From a virus, in the IMG/VR virus record IMGVR_UViG_3300031553_000354, positions 8,787 to 72,786 of that record: a stretch of DNA of 64,000 nt, one strand, 5' to 3'. A program made the position numbers and the translations under genes. Positions 8,255 to 46,640 of the stretch are shown here, piece after piece. The notes beneath the pieces are model-generated. The model was not told the origin of the DNA. It ran no database searches and saw only the letters and a program-made list of their open reading frames with translations. Each line of letters begins with the position of its first letter. Positions within the stretch are counted from its first letter, which is position 1.

Positions 8255-9280
8255 ATGAAAAGATTTAAACATAAGACGAAATCGGAAATTATTGAAATAT
8301 GTAAGTTATATACTGGTGGATCATCAGCAAATGCACTATCTAAACAATTTAATGTGGGTGTGCGCAGTATTAATAGAATTTTGCATAATAATGGAATATC
8401 AGCGCATTATCCGAAGAAATCGATTGATGAAATAAAATTGATATGCAGATTATATGAAAATGGCACGAAAACAAAATATTTGGCTAGAAAATTTAATGTA
8501 GTTCAATCAACCATAAGGCAAATTCTATATCGTAGTAATGTTCAAATTCGCCGGGATGATAAAACCCACGCTAAGAAATATGATATTGATGAACATTTTT
8601 TTGATATAATAAATTCACCAGAAAAGGCATATTTTTTGGGGTTACTTTATGCAGATGGATATAATAACGAATCCAAAAATACTGTTGCTGTCCAACTCAA
8701 GGAATCAGATAAGCAGATATTAATTGATCTGAAAAAATTAATCAAAACTAATCGACCGCTATATTATGTTGTTTCAAATACATCATATGGAATAGCAAAA
8801 TGTTGGAAATTAGTTATAACAAATAAACATATAAGCCAAAAATTGAACGAATTAGGATGTGTGCAAGCAAAAACATTTAAATTAACATTTCCTGAATGGC
8901 TTGAAGAAAATTTATATCCTCATTTCATTAGAGGATATTTTGACGGCGATGGGTCGATTGGAATTTACAGAAAAACTCTTCATTTTAGTATTGTTGGTAC
9001 CATTTCATTTTGTAATTTTTTGAAACAATTATTTGCTGGTAACTTCAAAGTAAATTGCTGCATTTCGAAACGACATAAAAATCGAGATAATAATATTAGA
9101 CAATTAGAAATTCAAGGCAATAGGCAAGCAATCAAAATTATGAATTGGCTTTATGATAATGCGACCATAAAATTAGAACGAAAATATCAAAAATATATTT
9201 CGATTTTTGATATGAGTATTGGAAAATATAGAGGAGAAAAATTATGTTCAGCCGCGATCTCAACAGTTGGAAAGCCATAG
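8255..9280 (+). CDS. Free-standing LAGLIDADG homing endonuclease with two N-terminal HTH repeats
   Basis: AYFLGLLYADG and HFIRGYFDGDG motifs; LSKQFNV/LARKFNV HTH repeats. Confidence 0.9.
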   Translation: MKRFKHKTKSEIIEICKLYTGGSSANALSKQFNVGVRSINRILHNNGISAHYPKKSIDEIKLICRLYENGTKTKYLARKFNVVQSTIRQILYRSNVQIRRDDKTHAKKYDIDEHFFDIINSPEKAYFLGLLYADGYNNESKNTVAVQLKESDKQILIDLKKLIKTNRPLYYVVSNTSYGIAKCWKLVITNKHISQKLNELGCVQAKTFKLTFPEWLEENLYPHFIRGYFDGDGSIGIYRKTLHFSIVGTISFCNFLKQLFAGNFKVNCCISKRHKNRDNNIRQLEIQGNRQAIKIMNWLYDNATIKLERKYQKYISIFDMSIGKYRGEKLCSAAISTVGKP

Positions 9281-11863: not shown

Positions 11864-13744
11864 ATGTCATTTGAAAAATCAGAAGCTAGAAAAAAATTAA
11901 CATTATTAAAAAGTTTAACTCCAGAACAATTAAAATCCGCGAAATTAACACAGCGCGATATAGATTATCTTGAAACATTGTTGGATCCAATAAAATGGGT
12001 AAAAACGAATCTTAAAAATCCAGAGGATCCGACCAAAAATTTTGTACCTTATGTGACCCAAGAATATATTATTTCAGAGGAAGCATCTAAAGTTGCAGTG
12101 CGAACTTCAAGGCGTACTGGAAAAACCGTAGGTATAGCAGCAAAAGCAATTTATTTAGCTTATACTGAACCCAATACTCCAATTTTATTTGTAGCTCCGT
12201 ATCAAGCTCAAATCCAAGAAATTTTTAGAGACATACAATTATTAATTTCGGATACACCTCTGCGAGATTCAGTAAAACGTTCCATAGAACATCCTTTCTA
12301 TCAAATTCATTTAAAAAATGGCTCTACTCTGTTTGGAATGACTGCTGGAGCCAAATCAAGCAGAAGAGGCACGGTTGTTCGAGGGCAAGGAGCAAAATAT
12401 CTTTTTCTTGATGAATTTGATTTTCTTCCGGAAGATGCCATTGCAGCAACATTGATCATTATGAAATCTAGAAAAGATTCTCATCTGTTTGTTACATCCA
12501 ATCCATCCGGAGCTCGTTCATATTTTTATCAATGGTGTACATTTCCGGAAAAGCATGGATTTGCCACCAGACATTTTGGAAAAAAATACATACCAAATTG
12601 GACTGAAGAAGATGATAAATTTTACAAGGAAAACTATTCCACAAATGCTTGGTATAGAGAGATCCTTGGAGAATTTGGCGAAGAAATGGTCGGAGTATTT
12701 CCACATCGATTTATAGACCTTTCATTGTTTGAATATGATCATAACATGTTGGCGTATAATCAACAAAACGCATATGTCTTAGGAGTAGATTGGAATGCAT
12801 CCCAAATAGGAACAAAAATAGTTATTTTGGAATATATCAAGAACAAAGTTCCAACTCAATCAGATAAATTATTTTTGAAAACTATTAATGGAACAAGGGA
12901 TGAATTAAATCGGCAGGAAAAAGTTAAAAAATACGACAGGCTATCTTGGGATTATTTTGTGAATAAATATCGCGTATTTAGAATATATTCAATTGAAGGC
13001 CAGCAGTACACGCAGACCGCCGCCGTTGATAAAATTCTTCGGTTATATAAAGAATATGATCCGGCATTTATCTATGTTGATCAAGGATATGGAGACGTCC
13101 AAATTGAATTATTGCTGAAAAAAGCTGTCGAATGGAAAGACAAAGCACTTGCAAAAAAGATTGTTGGATGCAATTTTAGCAGCACTATAGATGTCAAAGA
13201 TCCATGGTCAAATAAACCGGTGAAAAAACGCCTTAAAAATTTTATGGTTAACTTGTCCGTACGAACCCTCGAAGGATATCAACTTGCTCTTCCTTATTCG
13301 GAAGACAATAAAGGGCTATTGATCGGCCAAATGAGAGATTATCGTGTTACAAAAGAAGGTCCAACTCCAACATATTCTTCTGAAAATGATCATTATTTGG
13401 ATGCTCTTATGTTAGCAATTCTGGGATTTGAATCTAACTTTGGCGAACTTTCTTCTATTGGTAGAAAAAATGAACCAATTAAGATTCGAAAGTCGCGACT
13501 TCCTGTTATGGTACAGCCAAAACAAAAGGAAAATAAAATTATGTGCCCCGCCACTCATAGTGGGTTATTGAAACCGTTTGCTGATGAAATGGGGCTTCCA
13601 TATGAATATAAAGAAGGCACCATACCGGATCTCACATCAAAGCCACGATCAAAAACAAAAGTGAAACAATTTGCAAAACCATTTAGACGAAGATTCACGG
13701 GAATTCAAAGGAAAAAATGGCCACATTCTCGTTTAATGCCATAA
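11864..13744 (+). CDS. terL: Terminase large subunit
   Basis: Walker A RRTGKT, VRGQGA, Walker B LFLDEFD, coupling TSNP, RNase H-like GVDWN, IYVDQG, DHYLDA. Confidence 0.93.
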   Translation: MSFEKSEARKKLTLLKSLTPEQLKSAKLTQRDIDYLETLLDPIKWVKTNLKNPEDPTKNFVPYVTQEYIISEEASKVAVRTSRRTGKTVGIAAKAIYLAYTEPNTPILFVAPYQAQIQEIFRDIQLLISDTPLRDSVKRSIEHPFYQIHLKNGSTLFGMTAGAKSSRRGTVVRGQGAKYLFLDEFDFLPEDAIAATLIIMKSRKDSHLFVTSNPSGARSYFYQWCTFPEKHGFATRHFGKKYIPNWTEEDDKFYKENYSTNAWYREILGEFGEEMVGVFPHRFIDLSLFEYDHNMLAYNQQNAYVLGVDWNASQIGTKIVILEYIKNKVPTQSDKLFLKTINGTRDELNRQEKVKKYDRLSWDYFVNKYRVFRIYSIEGQQYTQTAAVDKILRLYKEYDPAFIYVDQGYGDVQIELLLKKAVEWKDKALAKKIVGCNFSSTIDVKDPWSNKPVKKRLKNFMVNLSVRTLEGYQLALPYSEDNKGLLIGQMRDYRVTKEGPTPTYSSENDHYLDALMLAILGFESNFGELSSIGRKNEPIKIRKSRLPVMVQPKQKENKIMCPATHSGLLKPFADEMGLPYEYKEGTIPDLTSKPRSKTKVKQFAKPFRRRFTGIQRKKWPHSRLMP

Positions 13745-28105: not shown

Positions 28106-28759
28106 ATGCCAGTTGGATTAGAAACTAGTTCAGTAACACGCACATACACGACTTTCACGGGCGCGGATCTTAAAGCAGTCTTCCATAATATCGTAATTGC
28201 CGAACTCATCGGCATTTCCTATACTATTACTAGGGAAATTGCTCCTATCTATACCTGTGGCAATCCAGATCCCAGAAGCTTTAGCAAAGGCAAAAGGGGA
28301 ATAGCTGGAACTATGGTGATGCATAATTTTGATAGACATGCATTGCGGCGCATCATGGATAAAGCAATTTACGTAGCCAAAAATGACGATTTTCAGAGTA
28401 TAGGTTGGAAACCAGTAGATGAGATTAGCGGAGTTGCTGATGAAGGAAGATTGGGAGTCAGGCTTGCAAATCCAATATATGTTGATCAAATTCCGCCATT
28501 TGATATCACTATCACATATGTGAATGAAGTGGGACAAATGGCAACTGAGAGATTGCTGGCGGTGCAAATTCTGAATGAAGGTCATGGAATTTCTATTGAC
28601 GATTTAACGAATGAAACCAATATGACCTTTGTGTGCAGACACGTTCAGGGTATGATACCGGCGGAAACCGTTAGCCCGTCAACTCAAGACCTGGAAAGGC
28701 CTAATTACAGCCCTTGGGAAAATTTGGGAACTGAGGCATTTAAAGGTCCTGGAGCGTAA
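28106..28759 (+). CDS. Tail tube protein
   Basis: Directly after sheath; TFTGADL, ISYTITRE, GKRGIAGT, DQIPPFDI. Confidence 0.8.
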   Translation: MPVGLETSSVTRTYTTFTGADLKAVFHNIVIAELIGISYTITREIAPIYTCGNPDPRSFSKGKRGIAGTMVMHNFDRHALRRIMDKAIYVAKNDDFQSIGWKPVDEISGVADEGRLGVRLANPIYVDQIPPFDITITYVNEVGQMATERLLAVQILNEGHGISIDDLTNETNMTFVCRHVQGMIPAETVSPSTQDLERPNYSPWENLGTEAFKGPGA

Positions 28760-28898: not shown

Positions 28899-29777
28899 AT
28901 GAAAACACAACGAAGACAATATGGAAAAGTAGGGAACTTAAATCCTGCATCATATGGATCGCCCCAATCTATAACTACATTTACCGGAGCGGATATTACA
29001 GCGGTTGCATATATTCATGATCAACTCAAAGTATTGGGCGAATTGCAAACAATTTCGTATTCAATTCACCGGGAAAAAAGCGCTGTTATGCTTTTAGGAA
29101 GAATAGATCCGCCATGTTTTACCCGGGGACCAAGAACCATAGCTGGATCATTGATTTTCACAGTTTTTGAGCGGGAAGTATTAGAGGAACTTATTAATAC
29201 ATATCCAGACGATACCGTCGATAATGATTTCAGTACGATCTTATTGGATCAGATTCCCCCATTTGATGTAACAATTTCATTTATGAATGAAGATGGATAT
29301 TTATCTTCCATGGTTATTTATGGATTAGAAATCGTTGATGATGGGCAAGTTATGTCAATCAACGATATGATTATAGAGAATGTCAAATCATATAAAGCTC
29401 GCGGCATCGATCTGATGTATAAAAAGTCTGGAGGAGTTTGGACTCCGGCCAGAAAATTCAATCCGTCTGCTCGATTTGAATCTCTGAATCCAATGAAAGT
29501 CAGGAACATCGAAGGAGATTATACAAAATATATTGAAGAATTACAAGGCCAAATTGATGATTTATATGCACAAACGATAGTGTTTAGTTCTGAAAATGCC
29601 AAACTTGAACTTACAGAAGGAAATCAAAATAAAATCGACGCAAATAAATTAGAAATTGCGAAGTTGGAAGCTCAAATTGAAGATTTAAAAAGAGAAAAGA
29701 AGTCTATGGAAATTAAACTTGGAATTGAAAAAAGGAGGGAAGATTTGGGACTATTGGGAACGAGCCGGTCTTTGTAA
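28899..29777 (+). CDS. Tail tube paralogue 2 with C-terminal coiled coil
   Basis: TFTGADI, ISYSIHRE, GPRTIAGS, DQIPPFDV shared with 28106. Confidence 0.75.
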   Translation: MKTQRRQYGKVGNLNPASYGSPQSITTFTGADITAVAYIHDQLKVLGELQTISYSIHREKSAVMLLGRIDPPCFTRGPRTIAGSLIFTVFEREVLEELINTYPDDTVDNDFSTILLDQIPPFDVTISFMNEDGYLSSMVIYGLEIVDDGQVMSINDMIIENVKSYKARGIDLMYKKSGGVWTPARKFNPSARFESLNPMKVRNIEGDYTKYIEELQGQIDDLYAQTIVFSSENAKLELTEGNQNKIDANKLEIAKLEAQIEDLKREKKSMEIKLGIEKRREDLGLLGTSRSL

Positions 29778-32867: not shown

Positions 32868-33380
32868 ATGCCCAGTGGAATATATGATCATAAAAAATTG
32901 AAAGAATTTTGGAAATCTTGGAGTCGTTGGTCAAGAAAATATCCACGTTGTCAAAAATGCGGAACAACTAAAATTCGGCATCATTCCAAAGGACTATGCC
33001 AAAAATGCTATTCTGCAGAATATCTACAATCTGATACATACAAAAATTATTATGAAAAAAGCAAGTATTGTAGATGGAGTAAACATACTCTTAGGGGACA
33101 TAGATTGCATGGTTATATAATTGATATTTCCATAAATGAACTTGAAGAAATAGCCAAAATTGCAACTCATTGTCCAATTTGTGGGCGCGAATTAAGTTGG
33201 AATAATTCCAAACTTTTACCAAATTCTCCGAGTTTAGATCGGAAGAATAATGGAAAAATTATTGATAAAAGTTCAATTTGGATTATTTGCCATTTATGCA
33301 ATGCCACAAAACAAAATAGAACTTTTAAGCAATTTATTGAATATTGTGAAATGGTATCTCAAAAATTTATAGGGAAATAA
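32868..33380 (+). CDS. HNH/endonuclease VII-like homing endonuclease
   Basis: CQKC..H..GLC..C, HCPICG, PSLDRKNN, ICHLCNATK. Confidence 0.75.
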   Translation: MPSGIYDHKKLKEFWKSWSRWSRKYPRCQKCGTTKIRHHSKGLCQKCYSAEYLQSDTYKNYYEKSKYCRWSKHTLRGHRLHGYIIDISINELEEIAKIATHCPICGRELSWNNSKLLPNSPSLDRKNNGKIIDKSSIWIICHLCNATKQNRTFKQFIEYCEMVSQKFIGK

Positions 33381-40607: not shown

Positions 40608-43600
40608 ATGCCAATTATTTACGATTCAGAAGAAGACCAGTTTCACGACAGGCATGGATATCTATTTCCATCTGTCTTATTGGGTGGCGGGTTCATGGCG
40701 TGGAAAAAATATTATGGATCTCCACAGCTTGGAAGAAAATTTTCTCCCCGCGCATTCATAGGATTTGTCAAAGATCTAAGCCCCCAAGATTATATGAGGA
40801 AATATCTTACAAGGCCGGATAAACCAGAGCTCCCACTTCAACGCAGGCTGGTGGAAACAGCAGTAGAATACGAAAAAAGCAAATCGGTAGTGGAGTTTCT
40901 TACCGACGCGGATTTGAAAACTATTCGCGAAATCGGCAAAGCCATACCAACTCCAATTAAAGCAGAGGAGATGGAATTTAAACGCCAAGTAATTAGGCGA
41001 TTTAATCCAGCAACTTATGATTTGGTAAGAACTAATTTGGAAAAAACTCAGGAAGTTTTTAATGAATTGCTCGAAAATGTCGAAGAATCTAAACATTTGC
41101 AAAGTGTTCTCAAACAACAACTTGAGCGATATAGATTTAGAAAATCCCGCCTACTTATACATTCAAAATTTTCTGAAATTATTAATCCAGAAATGTTGAA
41201 AAGCGAAGCAGAACAAGCAGTTTTGATGAGACAATTGCAGGATACGCAAAAGAAACAAACTCAGGAAGCTAGAAGGCTCGCACAAATACTTCAAAGGGAA
41301 TCTCCAGAAACTATAGTAAATCTAAAAATTCCAAAAGTTTTGGAGCGAGTTGATCCAGCTATTATGATAGATGAAAGACGAGCAAGATTCCAACCTGCAG
41401 GTAAAACAATTAGTGATACGGGTGTTAAATTATCTTATACAGGATATAAATCATTTCTTCAGAAGCTCAGAAGGGCAAGAGTTGATTCCAAAGCTATCGC
41501 CGCAATTGAAACTATAGATCCGCTATTGAAACAGCATTTAAATGAGCTTGCTCACACAAAAGCCCAAATTACATATGCATTGCGAGATAATGCGTTCAAT
41601 TTGCAAGCTGTAATCAAATTATCTATTCAGGTCAAAGAAGAAGGCAAAAGAGAAGTTGTTAATTTGAAAATCCCCCTTACTCGCGGCGGAAGATTAAGAA
41701 TCAATGGGACGGGCTATATCCCCCAAAGATATAAGGGCATTAGGCCACTCATTCCTGAAATAGAACGAATTGAATCCGATATTTATGAATCGATGATTCG
41801 CAATTTGAATAAAAGATTTAAAAGCGAAGTTTGGCATAAAGTAATGGAAGGAGATGTTCAGGGTGGAGAGCGATCTATTAATGCATTAATTAAAGAACCA
41901 ATTGGTGAAAGATTAATCATGGAATCTGGGCGTCCGGCGCACGATTTTATTGAACAAAATATAGTTCAGGATGCTAGGCTCGGCTACCTATCACAACAAT
42001 TTGGAAATGACGAACATATTGTTCTTGATCGGTTCAAAAAAATGCAAAAACTTAAATTGCTTTTATTGGAAGGCGATGGAAAATTAAAACTGCCAAATAG
42101 ATATGCATTTATAGATTTTGAAACATTTGGAACGAAAACAAATTTCCTTCCGCATCAAGTGACTGTGGGCATAATCGAAAATGGTGCAGTTGTTGATTGG
42201 TATACAGGAAAAATTGATCCTCGAAGTATTAATATCAATTATACTTTCCCGGAAGTTGATTTAAAACTATCATTCAAAGGAAAAACAAGAGAACAGGTCA
42301 TAAAAGAATTTACCGAAATGGGTCAACCCATTAGCAAAGTTCGAAGAGATTTAGAGGATTTTTTAAAAAAACATGCAAAAGGGGGAAAGCTTCCAGTTGC
42401 TGCATGGAATGCCGGATTTGATGTTGATAGAGTGATGGGTCAGCAATTTTTAGGAGCCAAAGCATATTTAGGAGAAACTTGGGATCCAATGGATCTCCAA
42501 AAAGCTATTGATCCAGATGTCCAAGCCTCGGTTTCTCTTAAATCTGTTGGACAGTCGCGAAAAATCTTTATTCCAATTTCCTCAAAAAAAGATTTGACTC
42601 TTAATAAGAAAATTATTGAATTATTTAAAAAAGATCATAATCTGATGTCCATTTTAAAAGATAAGGATCCCGGATTTCATGGTAAATTAATGAAAGCAGT
42701 TTCCGAGAAACAGATAAGAAATATAGTGATGCATGAAGCATCAATTGATGTACTTATAGCAAACAAAGTTTTCCAAGATATTACGAAAGACATTAATTTG
42801 CATTCCGCTGTGGTGATGCGCGATTTGAATGCAATGTTATTGACTTATCATCGGGCGCTAACCCATTCAATAAATCCCATAGATATTAATCATTGGACTA
42901 CCAGAGCATTGGGACATAATTTTCTATCTCTTTCCCCTCGTCAAATTTTACAAGGTAAATTTACGAAGTTTGATGTCAGAGATTTAGCTCCTCTTTCAAG
43001 ATTAGGTATAGATCCAACCCGGCCATTTTATCAGCAATGGGCATCTGCACATTTGATCACCAAAGATGTTCCTGATCTAGTTACAAAAACTTATAAGAAA
43101 ATTGCCGATAAATATGGCGAGCTCTTCAAATCGATGGATACGCTGACAATTTTTAATCCATTAACTGCAGAAAATGCTGGATTAATAGATTTTCAGACCG
43201 CAGATGAAATGGCAATCAAAACCGGAACAAAAGTCGTTAGAATCCCCCATACAGGCAAATTGAAACTCATACCGGAACTCAAAGAAGCCTTTGAGCAAAT
43301 AAAATCGGCAAAGACTCCGAGAGGTCGCGAAATAGTTTTATCGAAGTTAAGACAGAAGATGGCAAAAAGCTACCAAAAGGGATTTCATTTTAAAGAATGG
43401 CTGCCGGGATTTACTTTACTTGGAGAAGCAGAAGGATTTACATTTAATACTTCAACGCCGATGATGTCGACAATTGAAAATATCGAATATAATAATGAAA
43501 ATAAAGAAATAGCTATACGCCTTCAAACCGCCAGCCGTCCTGAAAAATATGGGCATCCGATGAAAGTTTTTGCATATCCATACAAAGGGATGTTAACTCC

Positions 43601-46600
43601 CATAGAGGGATTAAGATCGATTACTTGGGTTGACGCTGTCCTTCGCAAGGATCTTGCGAAGCGCGGCAGAATGTCAGTCATGTTGGGCCAAATTCAAAGG
43701 TTAACTAGGAATTTCCAGGCTATTCATTCGAAGTTAACCCCAGCTCAAACATTCCAGTTTTTTGAAACAGTTAAAACTTTTGTGGATAAAATAAATTCTA
43801 TGGGTGGCATCAAACTAAATTGGCAAATCAACAAAGGTATGCTTCAATTTATAGATGAAATAACTGGCAAAGAATGGCAAAAATTGGATGTCGGAAAGAT
43901 TGAAAAAAATTGGTTGCAATTTTCTGACGGTGAATGGGTCAAATTCATGAAAGAATATTCTCAAAAAATCCGCCATATGATGATTTCATTTGGGATTAAA
44001 TATTCCAGGCATGATCCTCGCTTGCCTTATTGGACTCAAGGTCAAATCGAATCAATGTTATCAACTGAATGGGGTCGACGGTATCCCAAAAAATTAGTAT
44101 TTGCTGATTTGTCTCGGGCTGAACAAAATTTATTCCGGGAAAGAATAGAAGTAGAAATGCATGAACAGTTATCAAAAAGTGAATTATCCAAATTTTTCAC
44201 CAAAACGGAATTGGAGCGTTGGAAATCGGGAACGTTAATGAAAGGCCATCTTTCTTTGATTCAGCTCTTTGGTGGTTCTTGGGGAATATTGGAAGTTACT
44301 CCAGCATCAAGAGCATATGAAGCTGGGGAATTATATGCTAAAGGTGCAGATATAAAAGTTCCCCGATTGGATGAACTAGTTGTGTCGGGGCCAATAGCCC
44401 AGAGAATCGCGCGCACATTTACGGGCGAACAGCGCGATATGATGAACTATATGTCAAATATCCAACCGCTTTTGAGATATGGAGTTTTGCCGGAATCTCA
44501 TTATCCAATCATAAAAGCTTCAGAAATAAAACTTGATCCCATAACTACTCATTTAGGATTTAGAGAAGAAATCGGCATAATAGAAGATAAATCATTTAGA
44601 ATTAAATGTGTTGAAACTGGTGAAATTTTTAATTCTCTTGAGGAAGTTCCGGATCGTTATTTGAAACAATATACATTAAGACCTATGGGAATGAACGCTT
44701 ACATGCATCCTAAAACTTTAGAAACGATGTATGGACAGCAACCATCCATAGTAGAATTCAATATAGGAAAAAAGAAAATTTATCTTCCTAGGCCGGCATT
44801 ATCATTTATTAGGGGAGCTCCGGCAAAGGTCACGAAAAGTGGTGATCCCTATACCATAGTTGGAAAAGAGATTCAAACGTTTAAAAACCTATTAGTTGAA
44901 GCCGCAGATTACGAGAAGATTAAGGGGGATGAGGCTAAACGCCTATTTGAAAGAAAGTTCTTTTCAAGAGTTGAAGATTATAAAAATATGATATTAACAG
45001 ATAAAGCCGCATATATAAAAATGACCCAACCAACGATTCCTGGAGTTCAAGGCAAGATTTCCATGGCATTTGCCCCAGGAATGGCTAAATCACTGGGACT
45101 GCCACAAGATATGTTTAGTCATATAACTACAGGATTTGGAGTGCAAGGGGTATCTGTAGAATCGATGGGCGAAGAATATTTTAGTAAAGCCATGGATGCC
45201 CATCAGGTGAAAGAAGGAGTAAGTATTGGAAAATATAGGGGCGCCACTGGATCGATTTATCTGGATAAATTGGCATTTAGGGAAGCTCTTCTCGAAGGTA
45301 AAGAATTACTTGCAGGAACTATTATTAGAACTCCCGCAGAAAACCGATTCGCATTTTTTGATACGTTAGTCACTGTGAAGAAAGATCAAGCGGCTGGAAT
45401 GCGACTCCAACTTAGAGAAGCGATTACAACTCATTATGATTATGATGGAGACATAGGGCGTTTAGTATTTGCAGATTTTTCTCCCCAGGAACAAGAGCAG
45501 GGTTTGAAAGATCTTATGAATAAACAACACATTGATCGAGAAACCCATGCTACATTAGCTAAAAGAATTAAAAAGCTTCAGGAAAATGTTCTTGAATATG
45601 AAACTGGCAAAGACGCAGCAACCAAAAAACATATTGTCAAAGAACTTGAACAAATTCAAGAACTTGAAAAAACAATGAATGTCAATGTCTATGGTCAAGG
45701 TATTTGGGTAAGGGAAGCCAGACCAGCAGCAACTCCAAAAGAAATTAAATTGGGAATCGGCGATGAAATGAGATTTCGGAAAATGAATTTGCATCAATTT
45801 ATGAAGGAATTGCCATCTATTGATCTTCCAGAAAGATTAATCAAATTGCCCGGCGAAGAATTGAGGCAACATCTTTCTAATATGCTTACGAAAACTGCCA
45901 CAGCTTACTCCTATCGAAAAGCAATGACAATGCGGGCAGCTACTAAATTATTTGGCGGGAAATTAACTGAAAAATATTTGGATTTATATAATGAACTAGT
46001 TGGAAAAGTTACTGCATTCAAAAAAGTTCCATATGAAAAAGCAGAGCAAATTACTCGGGCATTGTTAGAACCAGAAGCTGGAGAATCAAAGAAAATTATG
46101 GGGGAAGTTTTAAATAAGGATGCAGAACAGCTTTGGCCCCAATTTAAAGAATGGCATGCCGCATTGAATCGCAGCATGATGAGGAAAGAAGTTAATGACC
46201 TAATTAGTTCTGGAATGAAACGCTCTCCAATTACTGGTGGACAATTGGCATTATGGGGCCCAAGTGTAGAACTTCCCGGAACAAAGAGTCGCGCGATTTT
46301 AGATTTTTGGGGCAAAGAAAAATTCCTCGATAGCTTTAAGCGGCATGGAAAAAAAGGCGGCCTTGCAATAGCATTGGCCGCTCTTGTTGCGCCAATTTTT
46401 TTGCCACATGATAATTCATATGATAAAGAAGGATATCCGATAATACCGACCAGCTTCAATGTGGCCCAGCCGGTATTTCCAGCACCTATTCACGTAGTAC
46501 CAAATGATCCAACAACTTATCCCGTAAGGACATTTAAACCTCAGATTGTAGATCCGCTACTTATTAACTTTGGTTCTGACAATAATTTAACAACGAGACG

Positions 46601-46640
46601 AAATAGTGGTCGATATCCAAATAAGTTGAAAAATTACTGA
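40608..46640 (+). CDS. Putative single-chain two-barrel RNA polymerase fused to a DEDDh exonuclease (candidate virion RNAP)
   Basis: FIDFET, WNAGFD, HEASID exonuclease motifs; MKVFAYPYKG...VDAVL (beta-like); IIRTP...DYDGD (beta-prime-like). Confidence 0.7.
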   Translation: MPIIYDSEEDQFHDRHGYLFPSVLLGGGFMAWKKYYGSPQLGRKFSPRAFIGFVKDLSPQDYMRKYLTRPDKPELPLQRRLVETAVEYEKSKSVVEFLTDADLKTIREIGKAIPTPIKAEEMEFKRQVIRRFNPATYDLVRTNLEKTQEVFNELLENVEESKHLQSVLKQQLERYRFRKSRLLIHSKFSEIINPEMLKSEAEQAVLMRQLQDTQKKQTQEARRLAQILQRESPETIVNLKIPKVLERVDPAIMIDERRARFQPAGKTISDTGVKLSYTGYKSFLQKLRRARVDSKAIAAIETIDPLLKQHLNELAHTKAQITYALRDNAFNLQAVIKLSIQVKEEGKREVVNLKIPLTRGGRLRINGTGYIPQRYKGIRPLIPEIERIESDIYESMIRNLNKRFKSEVWHKVMEGDVQGGERSINALIKEPIGERLIMESGRPAHDFIEQNIVQDARLGYLSQQFGNDEHIVLDRFKKMQKLKLLLLEGDGKLKLPNRYAFIDFETFGTKTNFLPHQVTVGIIENGAVVDWYTGKIDPRSININYTFPEVDLKLSFKGKTREQVIKEFTEMGQPISKVRRDLEDFLKKHAKGGKLPVAAWNAGFDVDRVMGQQFLGAKAYLGETWDPMDLQKAIDPDVQASVSLKSVGQSRKIFIPISSKKDLTLNKKIIELFKKDHNLMSILKDKDPGFHGKLMKAVSEKQIRNIVMHEASIDVLIANKVFQDITKDINLHSAVVMRDLNAMLLTYHRALTHSINPIDINHWTTRALGHNFLSLSPRQILQGKFTKFDVRDLAPLSRLGIDPTRPFYQQWASAHLITKDVPDLVTKTYKKIADKYGELFKSMDTLTIFNPLTAENAGLIDFQTADEMAIKTGTKVVRIPHTGKLKLIPELKEAFEQIKSAKTPRGREIVLSKLRQKMAKSYQKGFHFKEWLPGFTLLGEAEGFTFNTSTPMMSTIENIEYNNENKEIAIRLQTASRPEKYGHPMKVFAYPYKGMLTPIEGLRSITWVDAVLRKDLAKRGRMSVMLGQIQRLTRNFQAIHSKLTPAQTFQFFETVKTFVDKINSMGGIKLNWQINKGMLQFIDEITGKEWQKLDVGKIEKNWLQFSDGEWVKFMKEYSQKIRHMMISFGIKYSRHDPRLPYWTQGQIESMLSTEWGRRYPKKLVFADLSRAEQNLFRERIEVEMHEQLSKSELSKFFTKTELERWKSGTLMKGHLSLIQLFGGSWGILEVTPASRAYEAGELYAKGADIKVPRLDELVVSGPIAQRIARTFTGEQRDMMNYMSNIQPLLRYGVLPESHYPIIKASEIKLDPITTHLGFREEIGIIEDKSFRIKCVETGEIFNSLEEVPDRYLKQYTLRPMGMNAYMHPKTLETMYGQQPSIVEFNIGKKKIYLPRPALSFIRGAPAKVTKSGDPYTIVGKEIQTFKNLLVEAADYEKIKGDEAKRLFERKFFSRVEDYKNMILTDKAAYIKMTQPTIPGVQGKISMAFAPGMAKSLGLPQDMFSHITTGFGVQGVSVESMGEEYFSKAMDAHQVKEGVSIGKYRGATGSIYLDKLAFREALLEGKELLAGTIIRTPAENRFAFFDTLVTVKKDQAAGMRLQLREAITTHYDYDGDIGRLVFADFSPQEQEQGLKDLMNKQHIDRETHATLAKRIKKLQENVLEYETGKDAATKKHIVKELEQIQELEKTMNVNVYGQGIWVREARPAATPKEIKLGIGDEMRFRKMNLHQFMKELPSIDLPERLIKLPGEELRQHLSNMLTKTATAYSYRKAMTMRAATKLFGGKLTEKYLDLYNELVGKVTAFKKVPYEKAEQITRALLEPEAGESKKIMGEVLNKDAEQLWPQFKEWHAALNRSMMRKEVNDLISSGMKRSPITGGQLALWGPSVELPGTKSRAILDFWGKEKFLDSFKRHGKKGGLAIALAALVAPIFLPHDNSYDKEGYPIIPTSFNVAQPVFPAPIHVVPNDPTTYPVRTFKPQIVDPLLINFGSDNNLTTRRNSGRYPNKLKNY

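Follow-up and report, generated by a model that had tools for sequence, protein, structure and literature searches.

The 64,000-nucleotide stretch of DNA analyzed here (the window; positions 8,787 to 72,786 of IMG/VR virus record IMGVR_UViG_3300031553_000354) carries, in a conserved block of giant genes, an open reading frame (ORF) encoding a protein named P0001. We found that this protein contains what is very probably a DnaQ-like DEDDh 3'-5' exonuclease domain and, towards its C-terminus, an invariant set of residues resembling the catalytic signature of two-barrel RNA polymerases (RNAPs). Because this signature is invariant and correctly spaced, and because of the gene context and precedent in other phages, we lean towards the view that the C-terminal ~1000 residues are a two-barrel polymerase. 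The combined reading, in which P0001 would be a virion-delivered giant that joins a DEDDh exonuclease to a divergent single-chain two-barrel polymerase, has in our estimate a probability of about 0.5.

Very few proteins belong to the P0001 family. When 5.8 billion proteins were searched by a word index, three relatives at 85-90% identity were returned (P0002-P0004), and the distant relatives P0005, P0006 and an ORF of the contig locus L005 are 27-30% identical over the full length. Residues 850-2010 were also scanned exhaustively with HMMER against 1.84 billion representatives, which gave six proteins, namely one close relative, two full-length distant ones (P0005 and P0006, 33% and 28% identical over that region) and three fragments. 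When contigs were scanned, viral contigs gave two close loci (L002 and L003) and metagenome contigs gave two distant ones (L004, the locus of P0005, and L005). The 185,579 species genomes scanned contained no relative, tblastn of P0001 against 50,697 phage records gave no match, and no paralogue was present in the two related viral records searched. The best scores in the ESM Atlas, 0.87 and 0.82, lay within the range of chance, and the LPD39-bearing clusters are a lead only. Family counts hereafter refer to seven proteins (P0001, P0002-P0006 and the L005 ORF), the fragments P0007-P0009 being kept apart; in their alignment, 274 of the 2010 columns are invariant.

A first-pass annotation of the window had proposed an intact DnaQ-like exonuclease in P0001, and this claim was supported by the conservation of the catalytic residues, by Pfam family matches and by a Foldseek search with a structure model. 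The DEDDh motifs are called Exo I (D-x-E), Exo II (D) and Exo III (H-x4-D), and P0001 has all five of their residues. Four of these (D503, E505, H709 and D714) are invariant in the family. The fifth, D605, is Asp in the close members only, so the set that the annotation had called complete is complete in P0001 but not in the three distant proteins. However, an acid is always kept at this position, since the replacement is Glu.

The model of residues 470-760, made from the seven-row alignment, reached a predicted local distance difference test score (pLDDT) of 82 and a predicted template modeling score (pTM) of 0.82. In it, D503 and E505 sit at the end of the first strand, D605 where a helix begins, and H709 and D714 where the last long helix begins, as expected for active-site residues in this fold. 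Foldseek matched this model to 38 PDB chains at E<=0.001, and the top rows were without exception DnaQ-like enzymes or fold relatives, including a Cas-associated DnaQ domain, TREX2, the PolC exonuclease, exonuclease I, oligoribonuclease, RNase T, 3'hExo and Maelstrom. At the same threshold, 29 viral proteins of BFVD were matched, mainly phage exonucleases. Sequence profiles pointed the same way: the Pfam family PF16473 (Rv2179c-like 3'-5' exoribonuclease) matched residues 500-607 of P0001 with an E value of 4e-4 and five of the seven members at E<=10 (best E 4.6e-5), and the PHROGs family 'DNA polymerase exonuclease subunit' matched P0001 at E 6e-4. Weighing on the other side, the PF16473 score of P0001 was 20.5 bits, under the 27-bit cut-off, and a profile of residues 470-760 searched against PDB sequences placed ERI1 first, but with an E value of only 0.8. 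An hhalign comparison of the exonuclease alignment with the single E. coli DnaQ sequence misaligned Exo III to Exo II and was disregarded.

At the level of fold and active-site residues, we consider the presence of a DEDDh exonuclease domain to be established. Its structural neighbors comprise RNases and DNases alike. As in the known DnaQ-like DEDDh enzymes (Pol III epsilon, oligoribonuclease/REXO2, ERI1/3'hExo, RNase T and the Cas2-DnaQ domain), Exo I-III are all present at the expected secondary-structure elements. Unlike those enzymes, the P0001 domain is embedded in a 2010-residue phage protein, has ~100 residues with extra helices between Exo II and Exo III, carries Glu as Exo II in the distant family members, and shows sequence similarity below the Pfam threshold.

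C-terminal to this domain, P0001 carries the residues that suggest a polymerase. Passages of Ruprich-Robert and Thuriaux (PMC2919709) describe eight residues as invariant in all two-barrel RNAPs. The three Asp of a DxDxD loop and the Arg and Pro of an upstream R-x-P lie in one barrel, and two basic residues and an Asp lie in the other. The same passages give, as reference residues, DFDGD and R446/P448 of Rpb1 with K979/K987 and D837 of Rpb2, and, for Neurospora QDE-1, D1007, D1009 and D1011, R962/P964, R738/K743 and D709. In the P0001 family, D1611, D1613 and D1615 of the loop, R1574 and P1576 of the R-x-P (RTP, residues 1574-1576) and the basic pair K986 and K993 are invariant in all seven members, that is, seven of the eight defining residues. 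The basic pair lies in MKVFAYPYKGML (residues 985-996), is 7 residues apart (6 in P0006) and is kept in fragment P0007. The candidate for the eighth position is the invariant E957, 29 residues before K986, the same distance as between D709 and R738 of QDE-1.

The spacing and uniqueness of these residues argue in the same direction. As the annotation had claimed, R1574 precedes D1611 by 37 residues, and its figure of 35 for E. coli beta-prime was right (R425 to D460, checked in the sequence); the corresponding distance is 38 in both gp96 and gp64 of P23-45 and 39 in phi14:2 gp66. The sole invariant R-x-P of P0001 lies 37 residues before its sole invariant DxDxD, and a six-frame translation of the whole window (127,996 residues) contains the pattern D.DGD a single time. 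The three Asp and the Gly of the loop are kept throughout the family. Invariant Lys/Arg pairs 5-9 residues apart number just two in the whole protein, K986/K993 being one of them.

The annotation had placed each of its motifs at the correct residues and nucleotides, and had likened the region around K986 to the E. coli beta motifs GDK...NKG (K1065, K1073), VDIVLNP and SRM, which it quoted correctly. Downstream of the basic pair lie VDAVL (residues 1008-1012) and KRGRM (1018-1022); the invariant R1019 and R1021 after D1009 recall the beta SRM, and T-K-T/S-A at residue 1761 recalls the beta-prime bridge helix (E. coli LKTANSGY), although both likenesses are weak. Fragment P0007 also retains E957, D1009, R1019 and R1021, while P0008 and P0009 keep the TK of the bridge-helix-like stretch. 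When motif-centered crops of the family were compared by hhalign with proteobacterial RpoC/RpoB alignments, the expected motifs were matched at P=0.016, at only P=0.023 (the candidate motifs of the beta-like barrel against the beta crop) and at P=0.24 (the bridge-helix-like stretch), a circular comparison because the motifs had dictated the choice of crops. From these sequence features we infer a beta-prime-like and a beta-like double-psi beta-barrel (DPBB-A and DPBB-B, respectively; Table 1). A Toprim-type DxD site was considered for the same loop and rejected: compared with the Toprim motif, the Gly after the second Asp is out of register, and G1617 is unconserved.

Table 1 Features of P0001 and of the giant genes on either side, in window coordinates; 7/7 refers to the seven family members
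Feature	Residues	Coordinates	Strand	Basis
P0001, whole ORF, 2010 residues		40608..46640	+	open frame, stop-free translation; full-length relatives
N-terminal hydrophobic stretch	17-31	40656..40700	+	second most hydrophobic 15-mer; equivalent (~10-31) in 7/7
DnaQ-like DEDDh 3'-5' exonuclease domain (very probable)	~494-731	42087..42800	+	
Exo I, FIDFET (D503, E505)	501-506	42108..42125	+	7/7 invariant; end of model strand 29-38
Exo II, NAGFD (D605)	601-605	42408..42422	+	Asp in 4 close members, Glu in 3 distant; start of model helix 133-144
Exo III, HEASID (H709, D714)	709-714	42732..42749	+	7/7 invariant; start of model helix 242-262
Candidate beta-like barrel (DPBB-B) signature	954-1022	43467..43673	+	E957, P984, K986, K993, D1009, K1018, R1019, R1021, 7/7 invariant
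Candidate beta-prime-like barrel (DPBB-A) signature	1574-1621	45327..45470	+	R1574-x-P1576-x-E1578 ... H1609-x-D1611-x-D1613-G-D1615, 7/7 invariant
DYDGD, putative metal-binding loop	1611-1615	45438..45452	+	unique D.DGD of the window; DFDGD, DPDGD or DADGD in distant members
Bridge-helix-like stretch (LTKTATAYSYR...R1776)	1757-1781	45876..45950	+	T1761, K1762, R1776 in 7/7
C-terminal hydrophobic stretch (GLAIALAALVAPIFL)	1918-1932	46359..46403	+	most hydrophobic 15-mer in 7/7
Upstream giant, 2403 residues		33394..40605	+	intein with LAGLIDADG, residues ~1187-1592; PD-(D/E)xK/Cas4-like matches, residues 1849-1961
Downstream giant, 2032 residues		46864..52962	+	Peptidase_M15_3, residues 28-94; phrog_20474

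The P0001 gene lies in the tail block. The window is a fragment of a large contractile-tailed (myovirus-like) phage, as it carries genes for a large terminase (at 11864), a portal (16011), a head protease-like protein, major head proteins, a tail sheath of 905 residues (25370) and a baseplate wedge protein (54027). The source viral record of 72,786 bases is estimated to be ~36% complete, and nearly all genes of the window lie on the + strand. Three very long consecutive ORFs (2403, 2010 and 2032 residues), with P0001 in the middle, stand between the sheath/tube region and the baseplate genes. Long ORFs flank the P0001 homologue in L004 and L005 too. The C-terminal 640 residues of the upstream giant are 45% identical to the ORF upstream of the L004 homologue, and the downstream giant is 34% identical to the giant downstream of it. 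Since the flanking giants in L004 are homologues around a middle gene of ~30% identity, the three-giant block is an old unit. The hydrophobic termini that the annotation had noticed in P0001 are present and conserved in the whole family, where the top two 15-residue windows of hydrophobicity fall at residues ~10-31 and ~1918-1932. Both are modest, and no 19-residue window of P0001 exceeds a hydrophobicity of 1.6; the C-terminal stretch lies ~90 residues before the C-terminus.

The closest tail-module precedent, closer than those the annotation had named, is gp96 of the Thermus phage P23-45, a two-barrel virion RNAP (vRNAP) fused to the tape measure; its paralogue gp64 is an RNAP that is not part of the virion. 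According to passages of PMC10770324, gp96 was found through a DxDxD search of virion proteins, has no other detectable similarity to RNAPs and is a proven active two-barrel enzyme; P0001, likewise, has no detectable sequence similarity to RNAPs beyond the motif. Like P0001, P23-45 gp96/gp64 are single-chain, belong to a tail gene block and have a DxDGD loop (DFDGD at 779-783 in gp96), and gp64 shares with P0001 the pattern DYDGDIG-x-(V/L)-F (DYDGDIGYVF versus DYDGDIGRLVF). The gp96 protein joins RNAP, membrane and metallopeptidase parts; in a similar way, a hydrophobic stretch lies here in P0001 and an M15 peptidase in the next gene. Together, the three giants carry the part types that are united in the 5002-residue P23-45 tape measure, namely a polymerase (a candidate in our case), membrane segments and a metallopeptidase. 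In gp96, however, the polymerase is N-terminal in the tape measure, while the P0001 candidate is C-terminal in a separate protein. The P23-45 phage is long-tailed and its record annotates no sheath, in contrast to the window phage. No homology beyond the loop was detected between P0001 and gp96/gp64 (hhalign P=0.021; hidden Markov model (HMM) signal in three of the seven members), and the passages of PMC10770324 on gp96 mention no exonuclease.

A second parallel comes from gp66 of Cellulophaga phage phi14:2, which is a giant protein like P0001 (2180 residues) and is likewise the middle one of three giant virion genes (gp67-gp66-gp65). Fusions with other domains are common among gp66 relatives and yield proteins exceeding 3000 residues. 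Local patterns are similar: R-(I/V/T)-P-T-(Q/E) of crAss-like RNAPs corresponds to R-T-P-A-E of P0001, and their (Q)-P-(L/I)-K to (H/Q)-P-(M/I)-K here. The loop, however, reads DFD(I/V)D there (DFDID in gp66) and DxDGD in the P0001 family. No homology between P0001 and gp66 was found by tblastn (gp66 itself matches 141 phage records), by hhalign or with a crAss HMM, and a DEDDh domain is not annotated in the crAss-like vRNAP records examined. The gp66 phages belong to the order Crassvirales, and crAss-like phages are short-tailed, whereas the window phage has a tail sheath; the idea that P0001 is a crAss-like phage gene was rejected on this ground.

QDE-1, as described in passages of PMC2919709, resembles P0001 in its DYDGD loop (1007-1011), the R-x-P upstream, and a basic pair with one acidic residue in the first barrel. 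The proteins differ in the R-to-D distance (45 versus 37) and in the basic pair (5 versus 7 residues apart). The acidic residue is Asp in all known QDE-1/YonO-like members and Glu in P0001, a comparison made by published residue numbers only. A fusion of an RNAP with a hydrolase is known from the HD domain on a beta-like subunit of a jumbo phage (passages of PMC7824862), and our literature search, within the term sets and library used, found no paper on a DEDDh-fused phage two-barrel RNAP.

Searches directed at RNAPs gave no significant match that held across the family. In an unbiased hhalign comparison with the whole family, a Thermus DPBB-A profile placed the DxDGD site first (P=0.021). A Thermus core HMM, built from gp96/gp64 only, ranked P0001 9th-10th of 4789 ORFs (E 0.087), among crAss RNAPs and RpoC, with the first non-RNAP ORF at rank 95. 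A complex prediction of residues 1470-1840 with residues 930-1160 and Mg gave a score of 0.00 and a mark of 0.32 with an uncertain partner fold, and counts neither way. PF00940 matched none of three related records and none of the control genomes either, which makes this search uninformative.

Several results weigh against a polymerase. In the signature itself, the eighth residue is Glu and not Asp, there is no invariant Asp in residues 860-985 before K986, and the passages of PMC2919709 on these residues describe no case of Glu replacing the second-barrel Asp. With 32 invariant Lys/Arg residues in the family, one basic pair of this kind would not be improbable by chance, and K993 is separated from R1574 by 581 residues, compared with 219 in QDE-1. 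Searches of Pfam, PHROGs and NCBIfam gave no RNAP for P0001, PF00623 had no match at E<=10 in the six frames of the phage record, and no RNAP was found by phmmer and profile searches of PDB sequences, by the tblastn search of phage records described above, or with the family profile in the phi14:2, P23-45 and E. coli records. When the full family was compared by hhalign with single gp66, beta-prime and beta sequences, unrelated stretches were aligned; the 'all' and crAss DPBB-A profiles favored the exonuclease motif II (P=0.066 and 0.11), and a 980-residue crAss profile found nothing in the family. The Thermus HMM put just three of the seven distinct members (P0001, P0002 and P0003) above decoys, ranking P0004, P0005 and the L005 ORF 153-351, with P0006 absent from the listing, while the crAss, 'noEc' and 'all' core HMMs ranked the family below decoys. 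Finally, an AlphaFold2 model of residues 860-1900 from a 5-row alignment had a pLDDT of 39.9 (below 50 in the motif region) and a pTM of 0.24. With such values the model says nothing about barrels, and Foldseek returned 0 matches at E<=0.001 from a model too poor to be informative.

These results leave room for a different reading, to which we give a substantial minority of our belief. Here, P0001 would be an ejected or tail-lumen 'polyvalent' effector or a structural giant, with the DEDDh nuclease as its only enzyme, degrading host or signaling nucleic acids or processing DNA ends; DxDGD and R-x-P would form a metal-binding site (for example, for Ca2+) or another catalytic site unrelated to two-barrel polymerases. 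The fold and family searches support the exonuclease alone, and every RNAP-directed profile test was insignificant or inconsistent across the family. Acidic motifs match easily, as seen when the reference RNAP profile preferred AGFDVD of the exonuclease over DYDGD. Moreover, the neighboring giants bear a nuclease-like region and a peptidase, and large injected multidomain phage proteins are a known theme (passages of PMC5512222 and PMC7824862). What this reading does not account for is that the only invariant R-x-P precedes the only invariant DxDxD at a distance within the 35-39 of known enzymes, that an invariant basic pair lies N-terminal to both, in the right order, and that ~1000 conserved residues would be left unexplained.

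We regard as improbable that P0001 serves chiefly as a structural component of the tail, belonging to a split tape measure or to the hub, and that its enzyme-like motifs are relics. Its gene lies between the sheath/tube genes and the baseplate genes, and the conserved hydrophobic stretches at its two ends resemble those of the flanking giants. However, the exonuclease model is complete, and members that share only 27-30% identity retain the exonuclease's catalytic residues and the DxDGD/R-x-P set unchanged, which argues for selection on activity. Less probable still is a two-barrel DNA polymerase like archaeal PolD, with the DEDDh domain proofreading during repair or first-strand synthesis on the entering genome: PolD and RNAPs have both barrels in common (passages of PMC10770324) and His1609 stands two residues before the first Asp where beta-prime NADFDGD has Asn, but PDB sequence and profile searches gave no PolD similarity, the tail-block position and the gp96 and gp66 precedents favor early transcription, and RNases (Orn, REXO2, ERI, RNase T) are as numerous as exonucleases of DNA polymerases among the best structural matches of the DEDDh domain.

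Returning to the polymerase-exonuclease reading, our model suggests that the hydrophobic N-terminus of P0001 would be followed by ~470 residues of no assigned fold, the DEDDh exonuclease, a divergent single-chain two-barrel nucleotide polymerase at residues ~930-1900 and the C-terminal hydrophobic stretch. K986 and K993, with E957, would come from the beta-like barrel, and R1574, P1576 and D1611-x-D-G-D1615 from the beta-prime-like barrel. By its gene position and by analogy with gp66 and gp96, P0001 may be packaged in the virion and delivered together with the DNA. Once ejected, the polymerase would transcribe the first phage genes without the host enzyme, like gp96 and gp66. We hypothesize that such an ejected early-transcription enzyme is the likeliest role of P0001 because of the three-giant arrangement and the part types shared with P23-45 and phi14:2. 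The attached exonuclease would work on a 3' end; it could resect the end of the entering DNA, exposing a single-stranded template, or alternatively trim or proofread the RNA 3' end, removing misincorporated or backtracked ends. We hold only tentatively, as rather unlikely in its full form, that P0001 founds a new, rare family of virion-delivered single-chain two-barrel RNAPs of contractile-tailed phages, with an active DEDDh exonuclease cooperating with the polymerase.

To our knowledge, only three designs have been described for phage two-barrel RNAPs that accompany the DNA: phiKZ-like phages have split multisubunit enzymes, crAss-like phages the cargo protein gp66, and P23-45 the tape-measure fusion gp96. 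All of them were hard to recognize by sequence. A fourth design, in a contractile-tailed phage and as a separate giant protein in a conserved block of three giant enzyme-bearing proteins, would add to the known ways in which phages free themselves from host transcription. Should the polymerase be real, P0001 would represent a new and very rare family among the already known phage virion two-barrel RNAPs encoded in a structural gene block, and the new feature would be the fused DEDDh exonuclease. Two-barrel RNAPs cleave RNA with their own active site, aided by factors. A fused 3'-5' exonuclease would be more surprising than the polymerase itself, as it would prepare templates or control transcript ends in a different manner. 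No two-barrel RNAP is known to carry a nuclease domain dedicated to proofreading or processing, and P0001 would be the first. Without a real polymerase, P0001 would reduce to a giant product of the tail block that has an intact nuclease of the DnaQ type and a conserved acidic site still lacking an explanation. Even then, a conserved giant of the injected type with an intact DEDDh nuclease would be a lead for early host takeover or counter-defense.

The two flanking giants proved more complex than the 'tape-measure-like' and 'hub' proteins that the first-pass annotation had seen in them: the upstream one combines an intein with a PD-(D/E)xK-like region, and the downstream one has an M15 peptidase. 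The upstream giant also has an N-terminal membrane-like segment and Gly-rich hydrophobic stretches. Its intein, matched by the Pfam families Intein_splicing, LAGLIDADG_3 and Hint, begins with C after ...YHYER and ends with ...ILHN before T, and the extein matched no known family. A homologue of this giant in L004 (2-2146) shows an intein-like end (..LLHN before SQ) right before a conserved PTWLP motif, corresponding to residues ~1761-1770 of the upstream giant of the window. The intein of the window is inserted elsewhere, which points to two distinct sites of functional importance in the protein. Residues 1849-1961 match PHROGs labeled CRISPR/Cas-associated (Cas4-like) and exonuclease and contain a D...E-x-K pattern (VDAVIM...ELMQIK), so that the block may encode a PD-(D/E)xK nuclease in addition to the DEDDh domain. 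The upstream giant was also considered as the real RNAP, and rejected, as it has no D.D.D. The downstream giant matches a 1954-position PHROG labeled endolysin and has a Gly-rich hydrophobic stretch at residues 1895-1927. To judge from these matches, it is probably a cell-wall-cutting tail or ejection protein.

Further observations concern the surrounding genes and the related phages. An HNH/endonuclease VII-like ORF of 170 residues (32868-33380) immediately precedes the giant gene with the intein. Beyond the sheath gene, two neighboring ORFs that are paralogues (28106-28759 and 28899-29777) both match phrog_9206, labeled major head protein; because of their position this label is doubtful, and their products more likely resemble tail tube proteins. 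The most closely related viral record, that of L002 (G001, 108,870 bases), has an estimated completeness of 53% and is classed as a provirus by its source, a hint that members of this phage group may integrate or that host DNA is part of the contig.

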